In this document: positions 5,213 through 20,673 of the stretch, one piece after another | How positions within the stretch are numbered: the stretch's first letter is position 1 | How the letters are laid out: each line of letters opens with the position of its first letter | Assembly: GCF_000007185.1 (NCBI RefSeq) | Contig: NC_003551.1 | Span: forward strand, 1,620,001 to 1,652,000 | Source of the DNA: Methanopyrus kandleri AV19 | GTDB lineage: Archaea; JAADCQ01; Methanopyri; Methanopyrales; Methanopyraceae | Reading direction: 5' to 3' | Length of the DNA stretch: 32,000 bases | Program-made: the position numbers and the translations under genes | The notes under the pieces: model-generated | Seen by the model: the letters and a program-made list of their open reading frames with translations, nothing else | Databases searched by the model: none | Told to the model about the DNA's origin: nothing

Positions 5213-6401
5213 CTGGCTCCTGCTATGGCTCCTGCTACCGATGACACCCGCGCAGGCTGATCCGACGAGTCACTACCTGGAAGTCCATCCGGATACCGTC
5301 CCGGTGACGCCCGAGGGGAGTCCGCTAGTTCCTGCCTACGTGGAACTAACCGACGAGGGGAAGGAGGCAGCCCTCTCCCTCCTCGAGCGTCTCGGAATCC
5401 CGTCGGATGAGGCCGCGGTGGGATACCTGGCCGACGTTTTCGTCGGGGAGTCGTGCCATGGAGGCACTCGGTGCCTCGTAGTCTACAATCCTCAGGACAC
5501 CACCGTCGAGGTGCGACCGTGGGAGGAAGATCGGCTCCCCCTAAGGTTACCACCGCTCCGACTGGACGACCATCTCACGGAACTGCTCCTGTGTCTACCG
5601 GTACGGGAGCAGATCACCCTTCAACCGGCCGTTCTCGAGCTCGGTTGGAACCTCGAAATGATGCAGCGATGCACCAAGGCCGTCCGCCTGCACAAATTCG
5701 GTGAGCCGACGGCCGTGATCGCGGTTTACGTACCCACCGAAACGGCCGCTCTCCGGGCGTTCGAATCGTTACTCCCCGACCCACGGAACGTTGCCCGAGC
5801 CATGCTCGAGCGTCTCTCCTCCGAGGTCCGCGATGCGATCGATGAGTATCTCGTGCGAGACCGGCTGGAAAGGTTGGTGAAATCGAGGCTAGGGAGTGAC
5901 GTCTACGATCGGGTCAGAGAATACTTCTCTTCGATGATACATTTGACGGTCAGCAAGATCGAGGAGCTGTACGACGAGAGGGTCCTCCCAGCACTGATCG
6001 AATGGTGTGCTGCCATCGTGCGGTACGTCGAAACCTCACTCATTACCGCGTTCGCACTTCTGTACCCCGACAACCCGAGCGCAGACGTCCTCGAGCGCCG
6101 GGTGGCCGTGTACAACTCTCCCTACTTCCAAATACTCCGAGACTGGCTGCTCGAACCTTCCTACACGGCCTGGAAGAGCGTTCTGTGCGATCTCGCCGTC
6201 ACCGTGGCCGATTCGATCTTCGAGGCAGCACGACCGGTCCTGTCGGCCTTGAGATTAGACTCCGAATCGAGCCGAACGACGCTCGAGGAAATCACGAAGT
6301 CCGCCGTGAAGAACTTCATTGAAGCCCTAGGTCCCTGTCTAAGGACAGTGTTAGAGCTGCTTCTACTGGACACACTCATGGGGCTGGCGTGGGCTTGCTG
6401 A
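5205..6401 (+). CDS. Hypothetical protein with no recognisable domain; possible signal peptide if the TTG start is used
   Basis: 398-aa ORF with normal amino-acid composition and high GC3. The N-terminus from TTG 5205 is MHTWLLLWLLLPMTPAQA/DP. An internal ATG at 5241 would remove the signal-like segment. The competing antisense ORFs are Arg/Pro junk. Confidence 0.6.
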   Translation: MHTWLLLWLLLPMTPAQADPTSHYLEVHPDTVPVTPEGSPLVPAYVELTDEGKEAALSLLERLGIPSDEAAVGYLADVFVGESCHGGTRCLVVYNPQDTTVEVRPWEEDRLPLRLPPLRLDDHLTELLLCLPVREQITLQPAVLELGWNLEMMQRCTKAVRLHKFGEPTAVIAVYVPTETAALRAFESLLPDPRNVARAMLERLSSEVRDAIDEYLVRDRLERLVKSRLGSDVYDRVREYFSSMIHLTVSKIEELYDERVLPALIEWCAAIVRYVETSLITAFALLYPDNPSADVLERRVAVYNSPYFQILRDWLLEPSYTAWKSVLCDLAVTVADSIFEAARPVLSALRLDSESSRTTLEEITKSAVKNFIEALGPCLRTVLELLLLDTLMGLAWAC

Positions 6402-6904: not shown

Positions 6905-7365
6905 ACCAGTCCGCGGTACCTGACGCTGAGTGACCTAGCTCCCGAAGGACACGCCCGCACGCACTCTCCGCACCCTAAGCACTCACCGTCCGGTGATGGA
7001 CAGATTTCGGAGCACCGGCCGCACGCTAGGCACCTCTCGTCGTCGACATCCGGTTCCGCCTCGGTCCGAGGACCCATCACCCACTTCAACGCCTCAGCAG
7101 CGACGTCCACGCCCAACGCTTCACGGAGCTGGGGCCAAAGTCCGAAGGGCGGTGTCTCTTCGACCACACGACGTACCTTGTCACGCGTCTCTTCCGACGG
7201 GTAATCACCGCTTAGGTAATGTGAGACCGTGGATGGGTCAACGTCGAGCCGCGCCGCCACCTCGACGAGAGGCAGCTCGGATGCCATCCGCTCGGCGGCC
7301 AGGGCGCGGATCACAGCCTCCAAGTTGAGTCTCCCGCGCCGTAAGGCCGACCACCCCTGAATCAC
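6880..7365 (-). CDS. Predicted regulator: N-terminal helix-turn-helix fused to a 2x[4Fe-4S] ferredoxin module
   Basis: 161 aa. LPLVEVAARLDVDPSTVSHYLSG is HTH-like. The C-terminus is CLACGRCSEICP...CLGCGECVRACP, two CxxCxxCxxxCP motifs. GTGA overlap with the upstream flippase gene. Confidence 0.7.
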   Translation of the reverse strand: MIQGWSALRRGRLNLEAVIRALAAERMASELPLVEVAARLDVDPSTVSHYLSGDYPSEETRDKVRRVVEETPPFGLWPQLREALGVDVAAEALKWVMGPRTEAEPDVDDERCLACGRCSEICPSPDGECLGCGECVRACPSGARSLSVRYRGLVYRVFSPK

Positions 7366-8921
7366 GGTTTAATGCGTCCTAGAATGTCCAGCGATCGTGC
7401 GAGCCGTACGACCCGTACAATTCCGGGTGATCCAACGCGACGTGCTCCCTTCTCCAGTAACTCCCACTCTAAGTCGCTCACACCGCCTAACACCACAAGC
7501 AGGATCGAGTACGTGAGTGTCCCCACGGCAGATCCGAGTAACAGCTTCAGCAGAGCCCCGTTAGTGAAGAGCATGGACCACTCGGTCGTGAGCCATGCTG
7601 CAACGCCTGCGATCACGGGAACTAGCGCCCATCTCAGCTTGAGATGAGCTTTGGCGTGTACCATTACCGCGCGGACGATCAGGATCATCGCGAGCCAATC
7701 GGAGATCGCCGTGGCGACGGAAGCCCCGAAGATGCCCCACTTCGGTACCATGATTGCGTTCAGGACTACGTTCGCGACCAGCGAAAACGAGAGAACGACC
7801 AGCGGCAGGCGCTCGCGCCCTATTCCCTGGAGCAGGCTCGCACAGCTGCGGAAGACCACTATGAAAGCCATGGCGGTTGGCAGCACGTAAAGCGCCTGGG
7901 CACCCGGCCGAAAGGCGGGACCGAAGAAGAGCGTGATAAGGGGCTCCGCCAACGCGCCCGTCAGGACCGCCACCGGGATCAGCAACGTCCACATCGTCTT
8001 AATCGCTATATGGGCGTACTGGCGTAGTGTTCGCTCGTCCTTGAGGGCTTCGGCCTCGGAGGCCGCCGGAAGCAGCGCGGTCGCCACCGCCGCACACAAC
8101 GTGGTCGGAAGGCGAGCTATGGGACCGGCCGCGTCGTAGTACCCGACCCAAAGGGTCCCCAGAAAGTACCCAATCGCCAGGAGGTCGACGTTCGACTGAA
8201 TCATGTCCGCGATACCGGTCAGCGCGACCGGAAGGCCGAAAGTTAGGGCGTCCTTGGCGACACGGTCCGAAGGGAGCGGTTCACCCTCCCTGGGTATCTT
8301 CGGGAGGTACTCGCTCCTGAGCTTGGCCGCCCCGTAGAGTCCCGATGTGGCGTACGCCAGCGTCGCCGAGGCGAAGACAGCACCGGCCGGTCCGTACCCC
8401 GCCAGGATGAGCGCGGGTGCCCCACCCACTCGGGTCCCCTGCTCGACGAACTGCGTGAGGACGTACCGGCGCATGTCCTGGAACCCTTGGAAAACACCCC
8501 GGACGCACGAAGCGAAGGCCGCAAAGGGTAATCCTATGGCCATGATCAGGAGCGGCGTATAGAGGCGCGGATTGTGGAAGTACCACGAGGCCAGGTACGG
8601 GGCGGTTAACGCCAGTATCAATGCGGCGAGAGTGGACAAGGCAACCAAGACTAGCGTCGGGATCACGATGAACTGGCGGACCTTCGTCCCCTCGCCGAGC
8701 GCGTGGTACTTAGCGACGTACCTCGCGACGGCGGGTGGTACCCCGAAGGTAGCCAAGAACATCACGATGGTCTGTATCACCATGGTAGACGACACTATTC
8801 CGTACCCGTCGGGCCCCAGCAGGCGGCCCACGAGGAGCCGGTACACGTACCCTCCTAATCGAAGGAACAACGAGCCGACGAGGACCGTGAGACTGCCTTT
8901 AACGAGCTTGAGGAGGGACAA
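7362..8921 (-). CDS. MOP-superfamily polysaccharide/oligosaccharide flippase (Wzx/RfbX-like)
   Basis: 519 aa, hydrophobic throughout with roughly 14 TM segments. The N-terminal GSLFLRLGGYVYRLLVGRLLGPDGYG pattern is typical of polysaccharide-biosynthesis (Wzx/MurJ-type) transporters. Confidence 0.8.
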   Translation of the reverse strand: MSLLKLVKGSLTVLVGSLFLRLGGYVYRLLVGRLLGPDGYGIVSSTMVIQTIVMFLATFGVPPAVARYVAKYHALGEGTKVRQFIVIPTLVLVALSTLAALILALTAPYLASWYFHNPRLYTPLLIMAIGLPFAAFASCVRGVFQGFQDMRRYVLTQFVEQGTRVGGAPALILAGYGPAGAVFASATLAYATSGLYGAAKLRSEYLPKIPREGEPLPSDRVAKDALTFGLPVALTGIADMIQSNVDLLAIGYFLGTLWVGYYDAAGPIARLPTTLCAAVATALLPAASEAEALKDERTLRQYAHIAIKTMWTLLIPVAVLTGALAEPLITLFFGPAFRPGAQALYVLPTAMAFIVVFRSCASLLQGIGRERLPLVVLSFSLVANVVLNAIMVPKWGIFGASVATAISDWLAMILIVRAVMVHAKAHLKLRWALVPVIAGVAAWLTTEWSMLFTNGALLKLLLGSAVGTLTYSILLVVLGGVSDLEWELLEKGARRVGSPGIVRVVRLARSLDILGRIKP

Positions 8922-8933
8922 CGAGAGACCCCG

Positions 8934-9821
8934 TCACTCCTCGTACACCGGCGTACCTTCCTTCTTCGTGAGCTCCCGGAACGCCTCCATGATACGCCTC
9001 GTGATGGGTCCTGGGCACTCCTCGCCGATCTTCCGCCCGTCGACCTTCCTAACGGGGGCCACCTCCGCCGCCGTGCCCGTTAGGAACACCTCGTCCGCCG
9101 CGTACAGTTCTCCCAGTGTTATCCGCTTCTCTTCCACGGGTATACCGAGCTCCTCGCAGATCTCCATCACGGTCGCCCTGGTGATCCCCCGGAGAATAGT
9201 GTCCTCCGGTGGAGTGTACACGGTCCCGTCTTCCACCACGAACACGTTGTCACCGGTACCCTCGCAGACGTAGCCCTCGTGGTCCAACATGATGGCCTCG
9301 TCGGCGCCCGCCAGGTTGGCTTGGATCTTCGCCAGGATGTTGTTCAGGTAGTTGCACGACTTGATCTTCGGATCGAGCGCGTCCGGTGGAATACGACGCA
9401 CGGAGGCCGTGATCACCTCGATCCCTTTCTCGTACAGGTCCCCGTACAACGGCTCCATCGGCTCCGCGATGATCACCACGTTGGGTTCCGGACACTTCTC
9501 CGGGTCCAACCCGAGGTCACCTTCGCCGCGCGAGACCACCACCCGGATGTACGCGTCCCGGAGCTCGTTGGCCCGTACGGTCTCGATGATGGCCTCCTTC
9601 ATCTTCTCCTTGGTCATCGGTATCTCGAGCATGATGGCCTTTGCGGAGTCGTACAGTCTGTCGACGTGCTCGTCCAACTTGAATATCCGGCCATCGTAGG
9701 CCCGAATCCCCTCGAAGACGCCGTCGCCGTACAGGAACCCGTGGTCGTAGACGGAGATTTTAGCCTCTTCCCGGGGGACCAGTTCGCCGTTCAGGTAGAT
9801 GAGCTGCTCGCGCTCAGACAA
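8934..9821 (-). CDS. ilvE: Branched-chain amino-acid aminotransferase
   Basis: [50 protein letters not shown] indicates a fold-type IV aminotransferase. The ORF is open to 9956. Family alignment begins at TTG 9821 ([12 protein letters not shown]), which has a G-rich SD upstream; the 45 upstream codons look non-coding. Confidence 0.9.
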
Positions 9822-10002
9822 CTCGGAACCCCCAGCCGCTGCCCGACGGGTAACGTTAAAACACTCTCCCTCCGGGGATCGCGTGGGGCTCGGAGGGGAG
9901 ATGCTCCAGTACGTGATCCTGGAGTACGTCCTCAGCACCGTCATTTCATTAGTCATCGAAAAGTATGTGGTGGACCCAACGACCCGGCGCTAAGTCCGTC
10001 AG

Positions 10003-14437: not shown

Positions 14438-14479
14438 CGGCCCCCGATGGACCCAATCCGCAATAATGTTACGATCCTT

Positions 14480-14488
14480 GTAACGATT
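14480..14488 (-). other. Conserved tRNA 3'-trailer motif AATCGTTAC (+8 after CCA of tRNA-Gly)
   Basis: The exact 9-mer is shared with the trailers of tRNA-Phe and tRNA-Pro at the same offset. Here it can pair as GTTAC/GTAAC. Confidence 0.6.
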
Positions 14489-14495
14489 TGAGGTT

Positions 14496-15283: not shown

Positions 15284-16138
15284 ATGCGACCCGAGGAGCT
15301 CGCGCTGAAGGCCGTACGGGAGGCCCTCCGCAGGACGGTGTTCGACCCGGACGCCTGGACGCACGTCACCGTGGTATCCGACGACGCCCTCCACGTGCAT
15401 ATCCTCACCAATCAGCGTAAGAACGTTGAGGGAAAGGGCGGCCGTAACCGACAGTACCTCGAGGGGTACGCCGAGGGGTACCTGGCCGCTCACGGACACG
15501 ACGTCGAGGTCCGCGTCTCCGTCGTCGGAGCGGGCCTGAGGGACGAGACCGAGGAGTTCCGGTACCTGCCGCTGAAGCGGGCCCTGAAAGAAGGGGTAAT
15601 CGAGGAGGGATCCCCTATCCACCGTGTCTGCGAGCGACTAGGGATCGGGTACGTCGTCCTCGGTGCCCGCGAGATCGTCGGACCGAACCCGGCCCTCGTC
15701 GAAGTCGTCGAGGGCCTCGAGGGAGAGCGCGCCGTCGACGTCTTCACGGGAACCGGCACGGGGGCGCTCGCCGCGGTCGAGGCGGGCTTCGAGCAGGTTT
15801 ACGCGATCGACGTGAGGGTACACCCCGAGGTCCGCGAGCGGCTGGAGTCGGAGGGCGTCGAGGTGATCGAGGCCGACTTCCGCGACGTCGACCTGCGGGA
15901 GTTCGAACCGATCGACCTCCTCACCGCGGACCCTCCGTACGCGTCCACACTCGAGTTCCTGGAGAAGCTGTCCGAGGAGCGTCCCCGGGTCGACACCGCC
16001 GTCGTCTGCCACGGCTTCTCCTCCTGGACGCGCGCCGTGCGGGAGATCCGGGGCTTCCTGATCGAGCTGTTCGAGGACGTCGAGCCGGTGTCCAAGTACG
16101 GCCACGAGCTCAGCGTCTGCCGCCGTCTACGGGACTGA
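15284..16138 (+). CDS. SAM-dependent methyltransferase with DPPY motif (RsmD/Trm11/N6-MTase-like)
   Basis: VFTGTGTGALAAVEAG (motif I), VYAIDV and DLLTADPPY (motif IV). Coding-like sequence starts at ATG 15284 (MRPEELALKAV...). The upstream 202 codons of the listed 486-aa ORF are the shadow of the MBL gene. Confidence 0.75.
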   Translation: MRPEELALKAVREALRRTVFDPDAWTHVTVVSDDALHVHILTNQRKNVEGKGGRNRQYLEGYAEGYLAAHGHDVEVRVSVVGAGLRDETEEFRYLPLKRALKEGVIEEGSPIHRVCERLGIGYVVLGAREIVGPNPALVEVVEGLEGERAVDVFTGTGTGALAAVEAGFEQVYAIDVRVHPEVRERLESEGVEVIEADFRDVDLREFEPIDLLTADPPYASTLEFLEKLSEERPRVDTAVVCHGFSSWTRAVREIRGFLIELFEDVEPVSKYGHELSVCRRLRD

Positions 16139-16165
16139 TCCATCGGACACCCGCTTCCGTGGGAG

Positions 16166-16462
16166 GTGGTATGAGCGTTTACGTACTACTAGTCACAGGT
16201 ACTCATGTTGAAATAGCACTATATATGCATTGTTTACGCATTATTATGTGATAACAGTAATACAATCGTTATGGCCTCAAAGCAGTTACAAAATCGGCTA
16301 AATCAGGGTCTTGGATGTGGCGGTAGGTTAACCAGTACGAAGCCTGTCCTAGCGGTGAACGATCGTATTACTGGTACCTGACTACCGTATGTGTATAATG
16401 CGTGGATAGTACAGTTCCTACACGAGCGTCCGTGGACTACCGTACGTAAGTGCTCATACCAC
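16166..16462. repeat. AT-rich element bounded by a 21-nt imperfect inverted repeat (16166-16186 / 16442-16462)
   Basis: GTGGTATGAGCgtTTACGTAC versus GTACGTAAgtGCTCATACCAC is complementary at 19 of 21 positions. The interior is about 42% GC with a 60-nt core near 28% (hand count). It lies between two convergent stop codons. Confidence 0.7.
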
Positions 16463-16476
16463 TTGAAGACCTGACG

Positions 16477-17235
16477 TCACCCGCGCTGGAGTTTCCAGCG
16501 TTGGAACTCTAACCCCACGTCGGGTACCTCGTGTTTCTCGTCGAGGGATTTCCCGCGGTGGTGGATCACCTTCCTCAGGTAGCTCGAGTAGTGCGCGGGC
16601 CAGCCTCCTAGGGTCCTCACGGCGAAGGATTCCAACCTGTCGGGTAGTTCTTCGAGTAGATCCCGGATTCTTGGTGACTCGGAGGGTCTGGCGTCGAATG
16701 CTAGCGCGAGCCCGCGGGCGAGTACCCATCGGGCCTTCTTGTATGGCAAGTCCGAGACCTCGGTCAGGAGGGTCTTGAGCACCGAGCGGAGGTTGCGCAT
16801 GAGGTGTCGCGCGAGCTCCAGAACCTCTCTACGATCTAAAGAGACTAACCATTCAACAAAGGAAACGCTCTCGTTCTCGGGTTTGCCCAGGTAGAGCGTA
16901 CGACCGTGCTTGTGTCGGGGGTCACGCCTCCACCTCGCCACGTAGTACGGGCCGCACGTACTACCGTTGACGGTCCTGTAGGTTACCTCCAGGCTCGGCT
17001 TCTTCCTCCTACGGTGAACTTCCCTCAGGACTCGGAGCGCGCGGATCCGCTCGACCGGGTTGTAGGGTATGGGTGCGTGCGATCTAACCAACCCCGGCCC
17101 ACGATCCCGAGTACTGCCCCTAAGTTGTATGGAGGCATGGAGAGAACGGCACCCCGGGATATAAAGGTTGTCACCAGACCCTCCGAGCTGGACGAGCTCG
17201 GTGACTCGTACCATACAACTCCTGTGGGAAGGCAA
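16477..17235 (-). CDS. Hypothetical protein with GPYY...YLGK motif (resembles DUF6788-type proteins of mobile elements); start uncertain
   Basis: EVTYRTVNGSTCGPYYVARWRRDPRHKHGRTLYLGKPE resembles the HGPYWY..R..GK....YLGK motif. GC3 is lower than in neighbouring genes. An internal TATA-like TTTATATC (17165-17158) suggests the real start may be TTG 17091 (204 aa). Confidence 0.6.
   Translation of the reverse strand: MPSHRSCMVRVTELVQLGGSGDNLYIPGCRSLHASIQLRGSTRDRGPGLVRSHAPIPYNPVERIRALRVLREVHRRRKKPSLEVTYRTVNGSTCGPYYVARWRRDPRHKHGRTLYLGKPENESVSFVEWLVSLDRREVLELARHLMRNLRSVLKTLLTEVSDLPYKKARWVLARGLALAFDARPSESPRIRDLLEELPDRLESFAVRTLGGWPAHYSSYLRKVIHHRGKSLDEKHEVPDVGLEFQRWKLQRG
17158..17165 (-). promoter_or_regulatory. 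TATA box-like TTTATATC inside the 5' part of ORF 16477..17235
   Basis: Near-consensus archaeal TATA on the minus strand. The surrounding codons are GC3-poor. The next in-frame start (TTG 17091) is about 70 nt downstream. Confidence 0.35.
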
Positions 17236-17294
17236 CTCGGGCCCGGACGAGGGCGCACCCTCACGATACCGGGGGATGTCACGCCGAGCCGAAC

Positions 17295-18960
17295 TCAGCG
17301 GCGCTCGACGTCGACTACCCTATCGAGCACCAGGCCGCCCGGTAGACACCGCTCCTCGACGAACCGCTCGAACGCGTCCTTACCACCTCGGGCCCGGTAC
17401 CGCAGGTATGCACCCGCCCACAGCCCGAGCTCCCGCTTCCGGACCGAGTACTCGAAGGGAACGCGGGTGAGAAACCGCTCGACGTGTTCCCCTCTGAACC
17501 CTAACCCGAAAACGGATCGACGTCCATCTACCGAGGTTTCGTACGATCCAGCCTCAAGAACTCTCGCATACACGCCGGTCGTGCGCTTCAGCAGGCTACT
17601 AACCCCCTCCAGAAACTCAGATGACTCTCCCCAGGGCGACGCCTGAGCGATCCCTACCTCCACTCTGTTCTCACGAGCCGATATCCAACCGTCCGCCCCG
17701 AACAGACCAGACAGGAATTCTAATGCGACCCGATCCGGCCCTCGGCGAACTAAGCCGGGCACATGAACCCTCCCCGTCTTCCTCCCTTCCGGCATTCCCA
17801 GTCCTCTCAACAGCGCCGCGAATCCCTCCGAGTGCACCGCGACTTCGACCGCGTCCCTATCCCCGTACTCGTACCGCACCGGCGAGAGGCCGAGCGCGCG
17901 CAGATCGTCCTCGAGCCACCGCAGTCCCTCCGGCTCCCCGTAGAACGACGACGTCAGGCTCCAGATGGCCGTCGCCGATCGCGTACCCCAGAACCCGGGT
18001 CAACGTCGGTAGCGCCGGATCCTCCCACCTAAGCGGTAGTAAGTCCAGGTCCCGGAGGAACCTCCGAGCGCCCTCGGGTGCGTCGACGTCGGCGAGCAAC
18101 GTGCCCCGACGGTCGGCCGCCGGCGGCACCCCCACCGGGTACAGCACGACCCGATCGCCCGGCTTCAGGTCGCCCAGTCGGCGCTTATTCCGGGATGAAA
18201 CCCACATGTCCGCCGGACCCGCGATTTCGAACCCCAACTCGGTTCGGAGGACCAGTCCTTCATCGCCCGAGTCCGATACACCTACATCGCCCCATCGAGC
18301 CGGCCACTTTGTCGAGAGCTGGGTCTCGCGCCGGGCCAACTCGCGGAGCATCCGCCGTGCCCGCTCCGATTGCTCGGGATTGTACCGGAACTCGACCTCC
18401 GAGAGGAACCTCCGTAGGTCCCTCCGACCGCGGATCAGCACCTCCACGCGGGCGTACCGGTAGTGCCCCGATGAGACGTGGGACAGTCCGACGACCTCCG
18501 CGTCGACGTTCAGTGAGCCCAAAAGTCGGCACACGTCGAGCGCCAGGGACAGTAGATCCAGTTCTCGGTCCGCCCGAGCCCGGAGTTCCAACCGGACGGG
18601 TCGGGGACGGCTCCCGTCGAACCCGAGCACCCGACCACGCACGCTGTAGAGACCGGACAACAGCTCGCGCGCCGCCTCGGGATCCTCGAATACCCAGTTC
18701 GGGATCCCATCCACGGGGTCCGCGGACGCGCCCGCCATGATCAGCGCTCCGATGAGACGACCGTCTCGGGATTCCACGCTCGTCCACCGCTTGCCGCACC
18801 GAACAGACGGGTTCACCCCTAATCGACTCAGATCCGCGAGCAGCTCCGACGCACCTCCTATCGGGACCGAAAGACGCACGCGTGGTCGATCGCCGTCGCG
18901 GAACGTTCCCCGACCTAGCAGCACTCCGAACAATCTAGCGAGGATAAGCTCTGGGTTCAA
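17295..18960 (-). pseudogene. Free-standing LAGLIDADG-family protein with four LAGLIDADG-like motifs, split by an apparent +1 frameshift near 17941-17955
   Basis: ORF 17857..18960 contains LFGVLLGRGTF, LLSGLYSVRGRV and VLGYAIGDGHL. ORF 17295..17879 contains FLSGLFGADGWI. Upstream of its GTG, the frame of the second ORF reads ...FYGEPEGLRWLEDDLRALGLSPVRYEYG, which continues naturally from GDGHLEPDVVV. The tail of the first ORF after that point is Arg/Ala junk. Confidence 0.7.
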
Positions 18961-19063
18961 CGCGGGGGCCTCACGGTGAGGTGTCGGGAGGGTTTAATGG
19001 GAGGACGATCGCGGTTTGCCGACGTCCCCTTCTGTAATCCGGAAACCGTTCGTTTTGAAATTC

Positions 19064-19072
19064 GTAACGATT
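19064..19072 (-). other. Conserved tRNA 3'-trailer motif AATCGTTAC (+8 after CCA of tRNA-Phe)
   Basis: It is part of a 15-nt block, AGAATCGTTACGAAT, identical to the tRNA-Pro trailer. Confidence 0.6.
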
Positions 19073-19079
19073 CTGGGCT

Positions 19080-19188
19080 TGGTGCCGCGGCCGGGATTTG
19101 AACCCGGGCCCACCGGATGGCGGCGATCCCGCGGAATACCCGCGGGATCTCTTCAGTCCGGCGCTCTCCCAGGCTGAGCTGCCGCGGC
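19080..19188 (-). tRNA. tRNA-Phe (GAA), 109 nt, with a 32-nt intron at or next to position 37/38; CCA encoded; C at position 8
   Basis: Acceptor GCCGCGG/CCGCGGC, D arm GCUC-AGCCUGGGA-GAGC, anticodon stem CCGGA/UCCGG. The stem strands are separated by CUGAAG[AGAUCCCGCGGGUAUUCCGCGGGAUCGCCGCC]A. T arm CCCGG-GUUCAAAU-CCGGG, ACCA. Confidence 0.9.
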
Positions 19189-20609: not shown

Positions 20610-20617
20610 ATTCTGAG

Positions 20618-20626
20618 AATCGTTAC
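20618..20626 (+). other. Conserved tRNA 3'-trailer motif AATCGTTAC (+9 after CCA of tRNA-Pro), forming the 5' arm of an 8-bp hairpin
   Basis: AATCGTTA (20618-20625) pairs with TAACGATT (20635-20642) across a 9-nt loop and is followed by TTT. Confidence 0.6.
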
Positions 20627-20673
20627 GAATATTATAACGATTTGGGATTTAAGAATTGATTGAGCGAACGAGG

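Follow-up and report, generated by a model that had tools for sequence, protein, structure and literature searches.

An AT-rich, two-fold-symmetric non-coding element beside a DUF1678 gene of Methanopyrus kandleri AV19

The island and its anatomy

A window of 32 kb of the Methanopyrus kandleri AV19 chromosome (32,000 nt; genome coordinate = window coordinate + 1,620,000) was analysed around an AT-rich non-coding island at 16139–16476 (genome 1,636,139–1,636,476). The island lies between the stop codons of two convergent genes, a class I S-adenosylmethionine (SAM) methyltransferase gene on the plus strand (15284–16138, stop at 16138) and a gene of the DUF1678 or MK-1 family on the minus strand (16477–17091, stop at 16477), an arrangement that a preliminary description of this DNA had reported and that is borne out by gene calls. 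The region is 100% identical in L003, a public AV19 reassembly. We found the island to be a real, structured and constrained two-fold-symmetric non-coding element of 300 bp, on the basis of its anatomy, of its conservation against a fast-evolving local background, and of its gain, fast evolution and decay jointly with the DUF1678 gene.

The GC content of the island is 45.9%, compared with 61.6% for the window. It contains the lowest GC value of any 120-nt segment (33%, the next lowest being 45%), in agreement with the earlier statement that this is the most AT-rich stretch of the window. Recounting gave 43.8% GC for 16166–16462 (about 42% in the earlier hand count) and 28.3% for 16201–16260 (28% before), and every coordinate in the preliminary description was correct on recheck. 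A scan with Rfam 15 returned zero matches for the island at the gathering threshold or at E ≤ 10, no conserved open reading frame (ORF) was found in it, and scanning of positions 15900–17400 revealed neither intrinsic terminators (a short GC-rich hairpin plus a T run) nor sigma-70 promoters. A 36-aa ORF (16271–16381) was considered as a small conserved protein and rejected; it has only the box C stretch (see below) in common with a 40-aa ORF of the second strain, L006, and the reading frame is interrupted by a 1-nt indel. No significant enrichment of 6- or 8-bp palindromes was seen in L006 or SNP6. The features of the island and of the adjacent cassette are as follows.

16142–17293, no strand: whole lineage-specific insertion of 1,152 bp, comprising island, DUF1678 gene and promoter
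16139–16476, no strand: AT-rich non-coding island between convergent stop codons
16163–16274, plus strand: left arm, a module of ~107–112 bp, inverted partner of 16356–16464
16166–16186, plus strand: left terminal 21-nt repeat, holding box A (16170–16185, TATGAGCGTTTACGTA), which is identical in L006
16256–16270, plus strand: inner box B, AGTAATACAATCGTT, unchanged between the AV19 and L006 left arms, including the tRNA-trailer 8-mer AATCGTTA
16271–16357, plus strand: polar core, 87 bp, ~51% GC, between both B boxes
16285–16308, plus strand: box C, a conserved core block of 24 bp, GTTACAAAATCGGCTAAATCAGGG, 23/24 identical in L006
16356–16464, minus strand: right arm, the left-arm module inverted and its partner
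16358–16372, minus strand: inner box B', AACGATCGTATTACT, mirror of box B at an 86-bp offset from box A'
16442–16462, minus strand: right terminal 21-nt repeat, holding box A' (16443–16458)
16477–17091, minus strand: DUF1678/MK-1 gene, 204 aa (Pfam PF07913, E = 2.9e-96), 15 nt from the right arm; product identical to P0001
17092–17293, minus strand: promoter side of the cassette, with a TATA box (17158–17165) between inverted TTGTATGG (17211–17218) and CCATACAA (17125–17132)

The terminal arms, 16166–16186 and 16442–16462, were confirmed to be complementary at 19 of 21 positions, and a degenerate pattern of the 21-nt arm matched only its two sites in the window, with 0 matches expected by chance. 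What had been described as a 21-nt inverted repeat is present but much longer, each arm extending over ~107 nt with 61–72% complementarity. The best local self-complementarity of the island scored 40, compared with 13.4 ± 2.8 in dinucleotide shuffles (z = 9.4), and a hidden Markov model (HMM) of the arm scored on both AV19 arms with E values of about 1e-29 to 1e-30. Over the full-length arms, 31 of 112 positions are unable to pair on either strand. It had also been proposed that the only mismatches of the repeat are G-U compatible; this holds for the AV19 21-mer, but in L006 both positions are Watson-Crick pairs, so that box A' differs from box A by 2 substitutions in AV19 and by 0 in L006.

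In an alignment of four arms (left and right, AV19 and L006), 49 of the 112 columns are invariant. These columns are clustered (p = 0.003–0.007), being concentrated in an outer block that corresponds to box A (16 bp, TATGAGCnnTTACGTA) and an inner block that corresponds to box B (15 bp, AGTrATACrATCGTT, 27% GC). The start-to-start offset between A and B is 86 bp, about eight helical turns, in 4/4 arms (16170/16256 and 16372/16458 in AV19; 6886/6972 and 7087/7173 in L006), whereas the 70-nt spacers of both arms are unpaired, with 30% identity at variable columns. The left-arm spacer has 28–33% GC, and the AT-richest part of the island is located inside the left arm rather than between the core boxes. 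The core is oriented alike in AV19, L006 and the SNP6 group, as is box C in every allele (strain consensus GTTACAAAATsGGCTAAATCAGGG).

Joint insertion, fast divergence and decay

The orthologous locus was located via methyltransferase orthologues in eleven other assemblies. In L008 and L014, which represent distant Methanopyrus species with a methyltransferase of ~70% identity, the insertion is absent and the methyltransferase stop codon is found 3–20 nt from that of a convergent gene encoding a LAGLIDADG_3-like protein of 554–562 aa; the indel in these two is the entire 1,152-bp unit, including the DUF1678 gene. In AV19 this unit takes the place of a spacer of 3–7 nt between the two stop codons. 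L009 and L010 lack the DUF1678 gene, the island and the LAGLIDADG-like gene alike. The DUF1678 gene and the island are thus both absent in L008, L014 and L009/L010 and both present in AV19 and L006, and the island was never gained or lost alone. No direct repeat that could represent a target-site duplication was detected at either end of the 1,152-bp insertion, nor between 16160–16166 and 16462–16470, as had been noted for the island before. According to these alignments, island and DUF1678 gene make up a single insertion, acquired as a unit in one M. kandleri lineage. Among the four explanations offered in the preliminary description, a scar or attachment region of foreign DNA comes closest, the island being one end of this lineage-specific insertion.

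Between AV19 and L006, identity is 95–100% in the flanks, 62–68% in the island, 68–93% in the DUF1678 gene and 56–72% in its promoter. Synonymous divergence (dS) is 0.16 for the methyltransferase gene (15% of synonymous sites) and 0.66 for the syntenic DUF1678 pair (44%); DUF1678 paralogues within AV19 differ by dS values of 0.8–1.0. The divergence of the DUF1678 genes at their shared site suggests gene conversion, replacement or old polymorphism of the cassette, and the entire DUF1678 cassette is a hypervariable patch. The L006 DUF1678 gene (7193–8007) was also observed to be no closer to its positional counterpart in AV19 (16477–17293) than to other paralogues.

Despite the divergence of the island, boxes A, B and C and the A–B spacing are kept in AV19 and L006. 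Only 4 of the 86 box positions differ between the two strains, and the island interior, with an overall identity of 64%, contains identical runs of 16, 13, 11, 11, 10 and 9 columns (permutation p = 0.0015). Gaps occupy 2 columns in 292 of the interior, compared with 4 events in 207 columns of the promoter-side control. The island alleles have 42–47% GC as opposed to 63% in the equally diverged promoter-side non-coding DNA of the cassette. Since the promoter-side DNA stays at 63% GC, the low GC content is a maintained property of the island rather than the result of general non-coding drift.

A third state of the locus was found in SNP6, KOL6 and three related assemblies (L056-58), whose methyltransferase gene is ~89% identical in DNA. 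In this group a remnant of the DUF1678 gene survives as a pseudogene with internal deletions, and most of the LAGLIDADG-like gene is missing. The island homologue, while AT-rich, retains only a degraded left box A; boxes B and C have been lost together with the right arm, and the arm carries an 11-nt deletion. The foldback signal is gone from this decayed island (DNA fold z = +0.65, compared with -2.7 and -3.2 in the intact alleles). These data agree with the view that the DUF1678 gene and the island would stand or fall together.

The DUF1678 family and other features of the window

The DUF1678 protein is rich in arginine and lysine and very basic, and the gene is under purifying selection (dN/dS ~0.13). 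The predicted structure has a pLDDT (predicted local distance difference test) score of 81. In a literature search, DUF1678 was mentioned in no paper. Homology between DUF1678 paralogues runs from the distal half-site of the promoter repeat to ~16–20 nt past the stop codon. The promoter-side arrangement, with 63% GC, is common to the DUF1678 paralogues in L004, L005 and L006, and the sites of the promoter repeat lie ~125 nt upstream of the genes at 10001 in L004/L005, at 4412–4858 in L021 and at 1436–1535 in L052. Paralogue promoters are bracketed as TTGTATGG ... TATA ... CCATACAA in M. kandleri and by TTGTAATC ... GATTACAA in distant relatives. This inverted repeat looks like a family-wide operator-like feature. 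Derivation of the island arms from the promoter repeat TTGTATGG was considered and rejected, there being no significant alignment.

More than 14 DUF1678 paralogues lack a site of the island type. Since most paralogues and metagenomic DUF1678 genes are without an island, the DUF1678 protein requires none nearby. A possible second example of an island beside a DUF1678 gene is found in L002, a distant metagenome-assembled genome of ~70% GC, where a relatively AT-rich 380-bp region (9520–9900) of 54–60% GC is located directly upstream of a divergent, 38%-identical DUF1678 gene. This region has nested inverted repeats and tandem 11-nt units (TACGTAGATAA / TGCATAGATAG) in both orientations, and holds a box-A-like sequence, TATGAGCGATTACGCA (arm HMM E = 0.006).

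The methyltransferase gene beside the island is conserved in synteny in every Methanopyrus species examined; its product has a DPPY motif and gives a partial match (E = 4e-13) to the 'mad2' methylase model in the defence library PADLOC. On the other side of the cassette, the LAGLIDADG_3-like gene (17295–18960, minus strand) is split in AV19 (367 + 194 aa, compared with a single ORF in L008 and L014), encodes 414 aa in L006 and is nearly deleted in KOL6/SNP6. The gene stretch from the methyltransferase to AcnX is a plasticity hotspot. Other strongly AT-rich AV19 stretches are present in L004 (2222–3106) and L005 (5636–6187); they reach a minimum of 28–29% GC, overlap called genes without Pfam domains, and show no similarity to the island.

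Several smaller elements reported previously were found again within the island: the TATA-like CTATATATG at 16219–16227, which is not conserved in L006 or SNP6; GTTTACG at 16177 and 16232; and the 12/13 direct repeat at 16380/16435. From the reported 11/14 direct repeat, the CAGTAATACAATCG copy at 16255 was read directly. The near-copy of a tRNA-trailer motif at 16264 is present as AATCGTTA, an 8-mer shared by the trailers of the window's three tRNA genes; the window holds 6 copies of it (0.34 expected), 4 of which are in these trailers. The order and spacing of the three tRNA genes equal those of tRNA-Gly(GCC), tRNA-Phe and tRNA-Pro(TGG), listed at genome 1,634,571, 1,639,188 and 1,640,532 in Table S1 of Su et al. 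2013 (PMC3695527). The intron-containing tRNA gene at 19083–19188 (minus strand), which Su et al. give as tRNA-Phe, was detected with Rfam but not with ARAGORN. Small AT-rich inverted repeats of the type AGAATCGTTACGAAT...TAACGATT begin 5–7 nt past the 3' end of all three genes and may be a tRNA terminator or processing signal:

14440–14495, minus strand: tRNA-trailer inverted repeat
19040–19082, minus strand: tRNA-trailer inverted repeat
20610–20650, plus strand: tRNA-trailer inverted repeat

At 5724–5772 (plus strand), GTTTACGTAC (box A core) and AATCGTTAC (tRNA-trailer motif overlapping box B) occur together inside a GC-rich ORF of 398 aa, 30 nt apart and 40 nt from start to start; this pairing is probably due to chance.

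Possible functions of the island

The explanation that we tentatively place first is that the island, rather than encoding an RNA or a protein, is a cis-acting, easily melted DNA site, a candidate for protein binding, coupled to the DUF1678 cassette. A reading at the level of DNA is preferred because mirror boxes at a fixed distance, separated by low-melting spacers that vary almost freely, have the look of a duplex protein-binding site. A sequence-specific DNA-binding protein would occupy the boxes as symmetric pairs and would work on, or bridge across, the easily opened spacers; the bound complex might serve regulation, recombination, replication or segregation. The best candidate for this ligand may be the strongly basic product of the DUF1678/MK-1 gene, 15 nt from the island arm, since it is the nearest, is basic and under purifying selection, and has an operator-like repeat at the promoters of its paralogues. 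We infer all three elements of this proposal, i.e. that the constraint would act on double-stranded DNA, that a protein would be bound, and that DUF1678 would be that protein, from comparison of sequences.

Several observations weigh against this proposal. The conservation statistics rest on two intact alleles, that is, on one pairwise comparison plus the comparison of left with right arms; the left box A is at the edge of the slowly evolving flank, where conservation is less informative; the scarcity of indels in the island is only weakly significant; and the joint decay in SNP6/KOL6/L056-58 is that of a single lineage and counts as one evolutionary event. As for the protein, no recognisable DNA-binding fold was found in DUF1678, a Foldseek search of its model against PDB and BFVD gave nothing at E ≤ 0.001, and its structural matches to integrases and topoisomerase IB are at noise level. 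A general association of DUF1678 with the island also fails, since no island accompanies the 3 other AV19 paralogues, the divergent copy P0042 of AV19 or any of 27 metagenomic loci.

The preliminary description had suggested a MITE-like element (MITE, miniature inverted-repeat transposable element). The island is indeed similar to MITEs and foldback elements in being small, non-coding and AT-rich relative to its host, and in having terminal inverted repeats (21 nt, 19/21, extending to imperfect arms of ~107 nt), subterminal conserved boxes and a variable interior; it is also situated within a lineage-specific insertion, and its right arm is eroded in SNP6 and KOL6. It might therefore be the relic of such an element that arrived with or beside the DUF1678 cassette, functionless and with a symmetry that is historical and eroding. 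We consider this unlikely, although it deserves more weight than the alternatives discussed below. A target-site duplication is lacking, and the window, another 41 kb of AV19 sequence and ~390 kb of related loci yielded no further copy; neither the island nor box C was matched in collections of plasmids, phages and viruses, and eight single box-A matches in viral contigs are at the level of chance. Unlike a mobile element, the island was never present or absent independently of the DUF1678 gene, and, unlike those of a dead one, its boxes A, B and C are kept between strains well above the local neutral rate, under ongoing constraint at an orthologous site. Within the DNA searched, the suggestion of a MITE-like element is not supported. 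A stem-closed RNA, the second suggestion, is likewise disfavoured. Such a long hairpin, in which A/A' and B/B' would close nested domains, could form the 3' untranslated region of the minus-strand DUF1678 mRNA or be a transcript of its own; the island is directly downstream of two genes and probably receives read-through transcription. At 37 °C the folds of both strands are better than those of shuffles (z = -3.6 for the plus and -6.1 for the minus strand), but this is true of any long palindrome. The G-U compatible mismatches of the AV19 box A favour the plus strand, whereas the conserved A/G mismatch of box B, which is also G-U compatible, favours the minus strand, so that the two boxes point to opposite strands. 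In the arms, 4 pair-keeping double changes were counted between AV19 and L006 against 23 pair-breaking single changes, and ~4 double changes would be expected for independently evolving arms by a hand estimate; compensation is thus at chance level, as judged from two alleles only, in which the boxes are invariant. At 98 °C, for which the extrapolated energy parameters are rough, the predicted energy is -1 to -7 kcal/mol, compared with -10 to -26 kcal/mol for coding sequence of equal length, and the structured RNAs of M. kandleri are GC-rich (PMC3695527), in contrast to box B. The small-RNome survey by Su et al. (2013), which checked all intergenic regions for RNAs with >500 reads, lists no small RNA between genome positions 1,635,000 and 1,638,999, and none less than 1.5 kb from the island, in its published Table S1 (PMC3695527). 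Together with the unpaired 70-nt spacers and the lack of an Rfam match, these results make a functional hairpin RNA improbable.

We assign a similarly small probability to a substrate of site-specific recombination, either a segment inverted between A and A' or a site like the phage attachment site attP with arm-type and core-type boxes. The island, with 297 bp bounded by 21-bp inverted repeats, resembles attP intasome sites and invertible switches in its size (~250–300 bp), AT-richness, exactly spaced boxes and polar core, it contains the TATA-like CTATATATG, and it belongs to a plasticity hotspot in which a LAGLIDADG-like gene is a close neighbour; a resemblance of DUF1678 to integrase or topoisomerase IB folds is the faintest of hints. 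It differs from them in that the genes around it include no recognisable serine or tyrosine recombinase, DUF1678 itself missing a conserved C-terminal tyrosine, that the core has a single orientation in AV19, L006 and the SNP6 group, and that the TATA-like element is not conserved. The single-strand origins of rolling-circle plasmids, which are imperfect palindromes of 200–300 nt with a few conserved boxes in divergent sequence, resemble the island as well, but the latter is chromosomal, has no HUH Rep gene, and forms a hairpin predicted to be unstable at growth temperature. For the suggested DNA-unwinding element, the AT-richness kept in all alleles despite near-saturated divergence speaks in favour, and the lack of an origin recognition box (ORB) core, of an Orc1/Cdc6-type gene and of conservation across species speaks against. 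An accessory replication origin or unwinding element, captured with its own initiator and having inverted boxes that flank low-melting DNA, would agree with the properties of archaeal origins, which are AT-rich, flanked by inverted repeats, located next to an initiator gene and often captured by integration (PMC4010727). Like the archaeal pairs of oriC and initiator gene (inverted ORBs with orc1/cdc6 or whiP), the island is low-melting, has inverted boxes, is linked to a gene that travels with it, was acquired by insertion and is dispensable between lineages. Methanopyrales are without Cdc6/Orc1 and have no known origin (PMC3914693, PMC2643942, PMC5504354), AV19 shows very weak GC skew (PMC2684130), and the literature yielded no origin prediction for this strain. 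On the other hand, the ORB core TTCC-N4-GAA has 10 matches in the window but 0 in 16139–16476, the island boxes are unrelated to it in sequence, neither an Orc1/Cdc6- nor a WhiP-type gene is found beside the island (its neighbours being DUF1678 and the methyltransferase), and the window shows no switch of GC skew at 16.3 kb. Moreover, the AT-richest DNA lies outside the core, the island is at the 3' end of the DUF1678 gene, and most paralogues are site-less. Because it is absent or decayed in relatives (missing from other Methanopyrus species, degraded in SNP6/KOL6), the island is not the essential origin and would at best be an accessory one, which we judge to be very doubtful. Finally, it is highly unlikely that the island is merely an unconstrained spacer, in which the palindromic appearance is left over from a single ancient inverted duplication and the conserved blocks are due to chance. 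There are only two intact alleles, the 49/112 invariant columns compare with ~44 in a hand estimate for four uniformly diverging arms, and the indel deficit is not significant alone; nevertheless, conservation is clustered (p = 0.0015–0.007), identical boxes recur at identical 86-bp offsets in four arms, and the composition is 17 points below that of neighbouring non-coding DNA.

Compared with these alternatives, a protein-binding DNA site coupled to the DUF1678 cassette remains our preferred reading. M. kandleri is noted for its hundreds of orphan genes, and MK-1/DUF1678 is the largest orphan family. The locus offers this family a first candidate cis partner, which is compact, symmetric and low-melting and has three defined boxes. 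The synonymous divergence of the cassette is ~4 times that of its surroundings, and gene and site decay together; fast divergence with joint decay is a pattern typical of accessory or selfish modules. In M. kandleri, in which Orc1/Cdc6 is absent and the replication origin has not been identified (PMC3914693, PMC2643942), it would be a long shot to regard the island as an accessory origin, or another site of protein-driven melting, that is read by DUF1678/MK-1 as a non-Orc initiator-like family. Were the island only a regulatory docking site or a relic, its interest would be local; if it were an origin or a recombination site, it would make replication or genome plasticity in Methanopyrales accessible to experiment.

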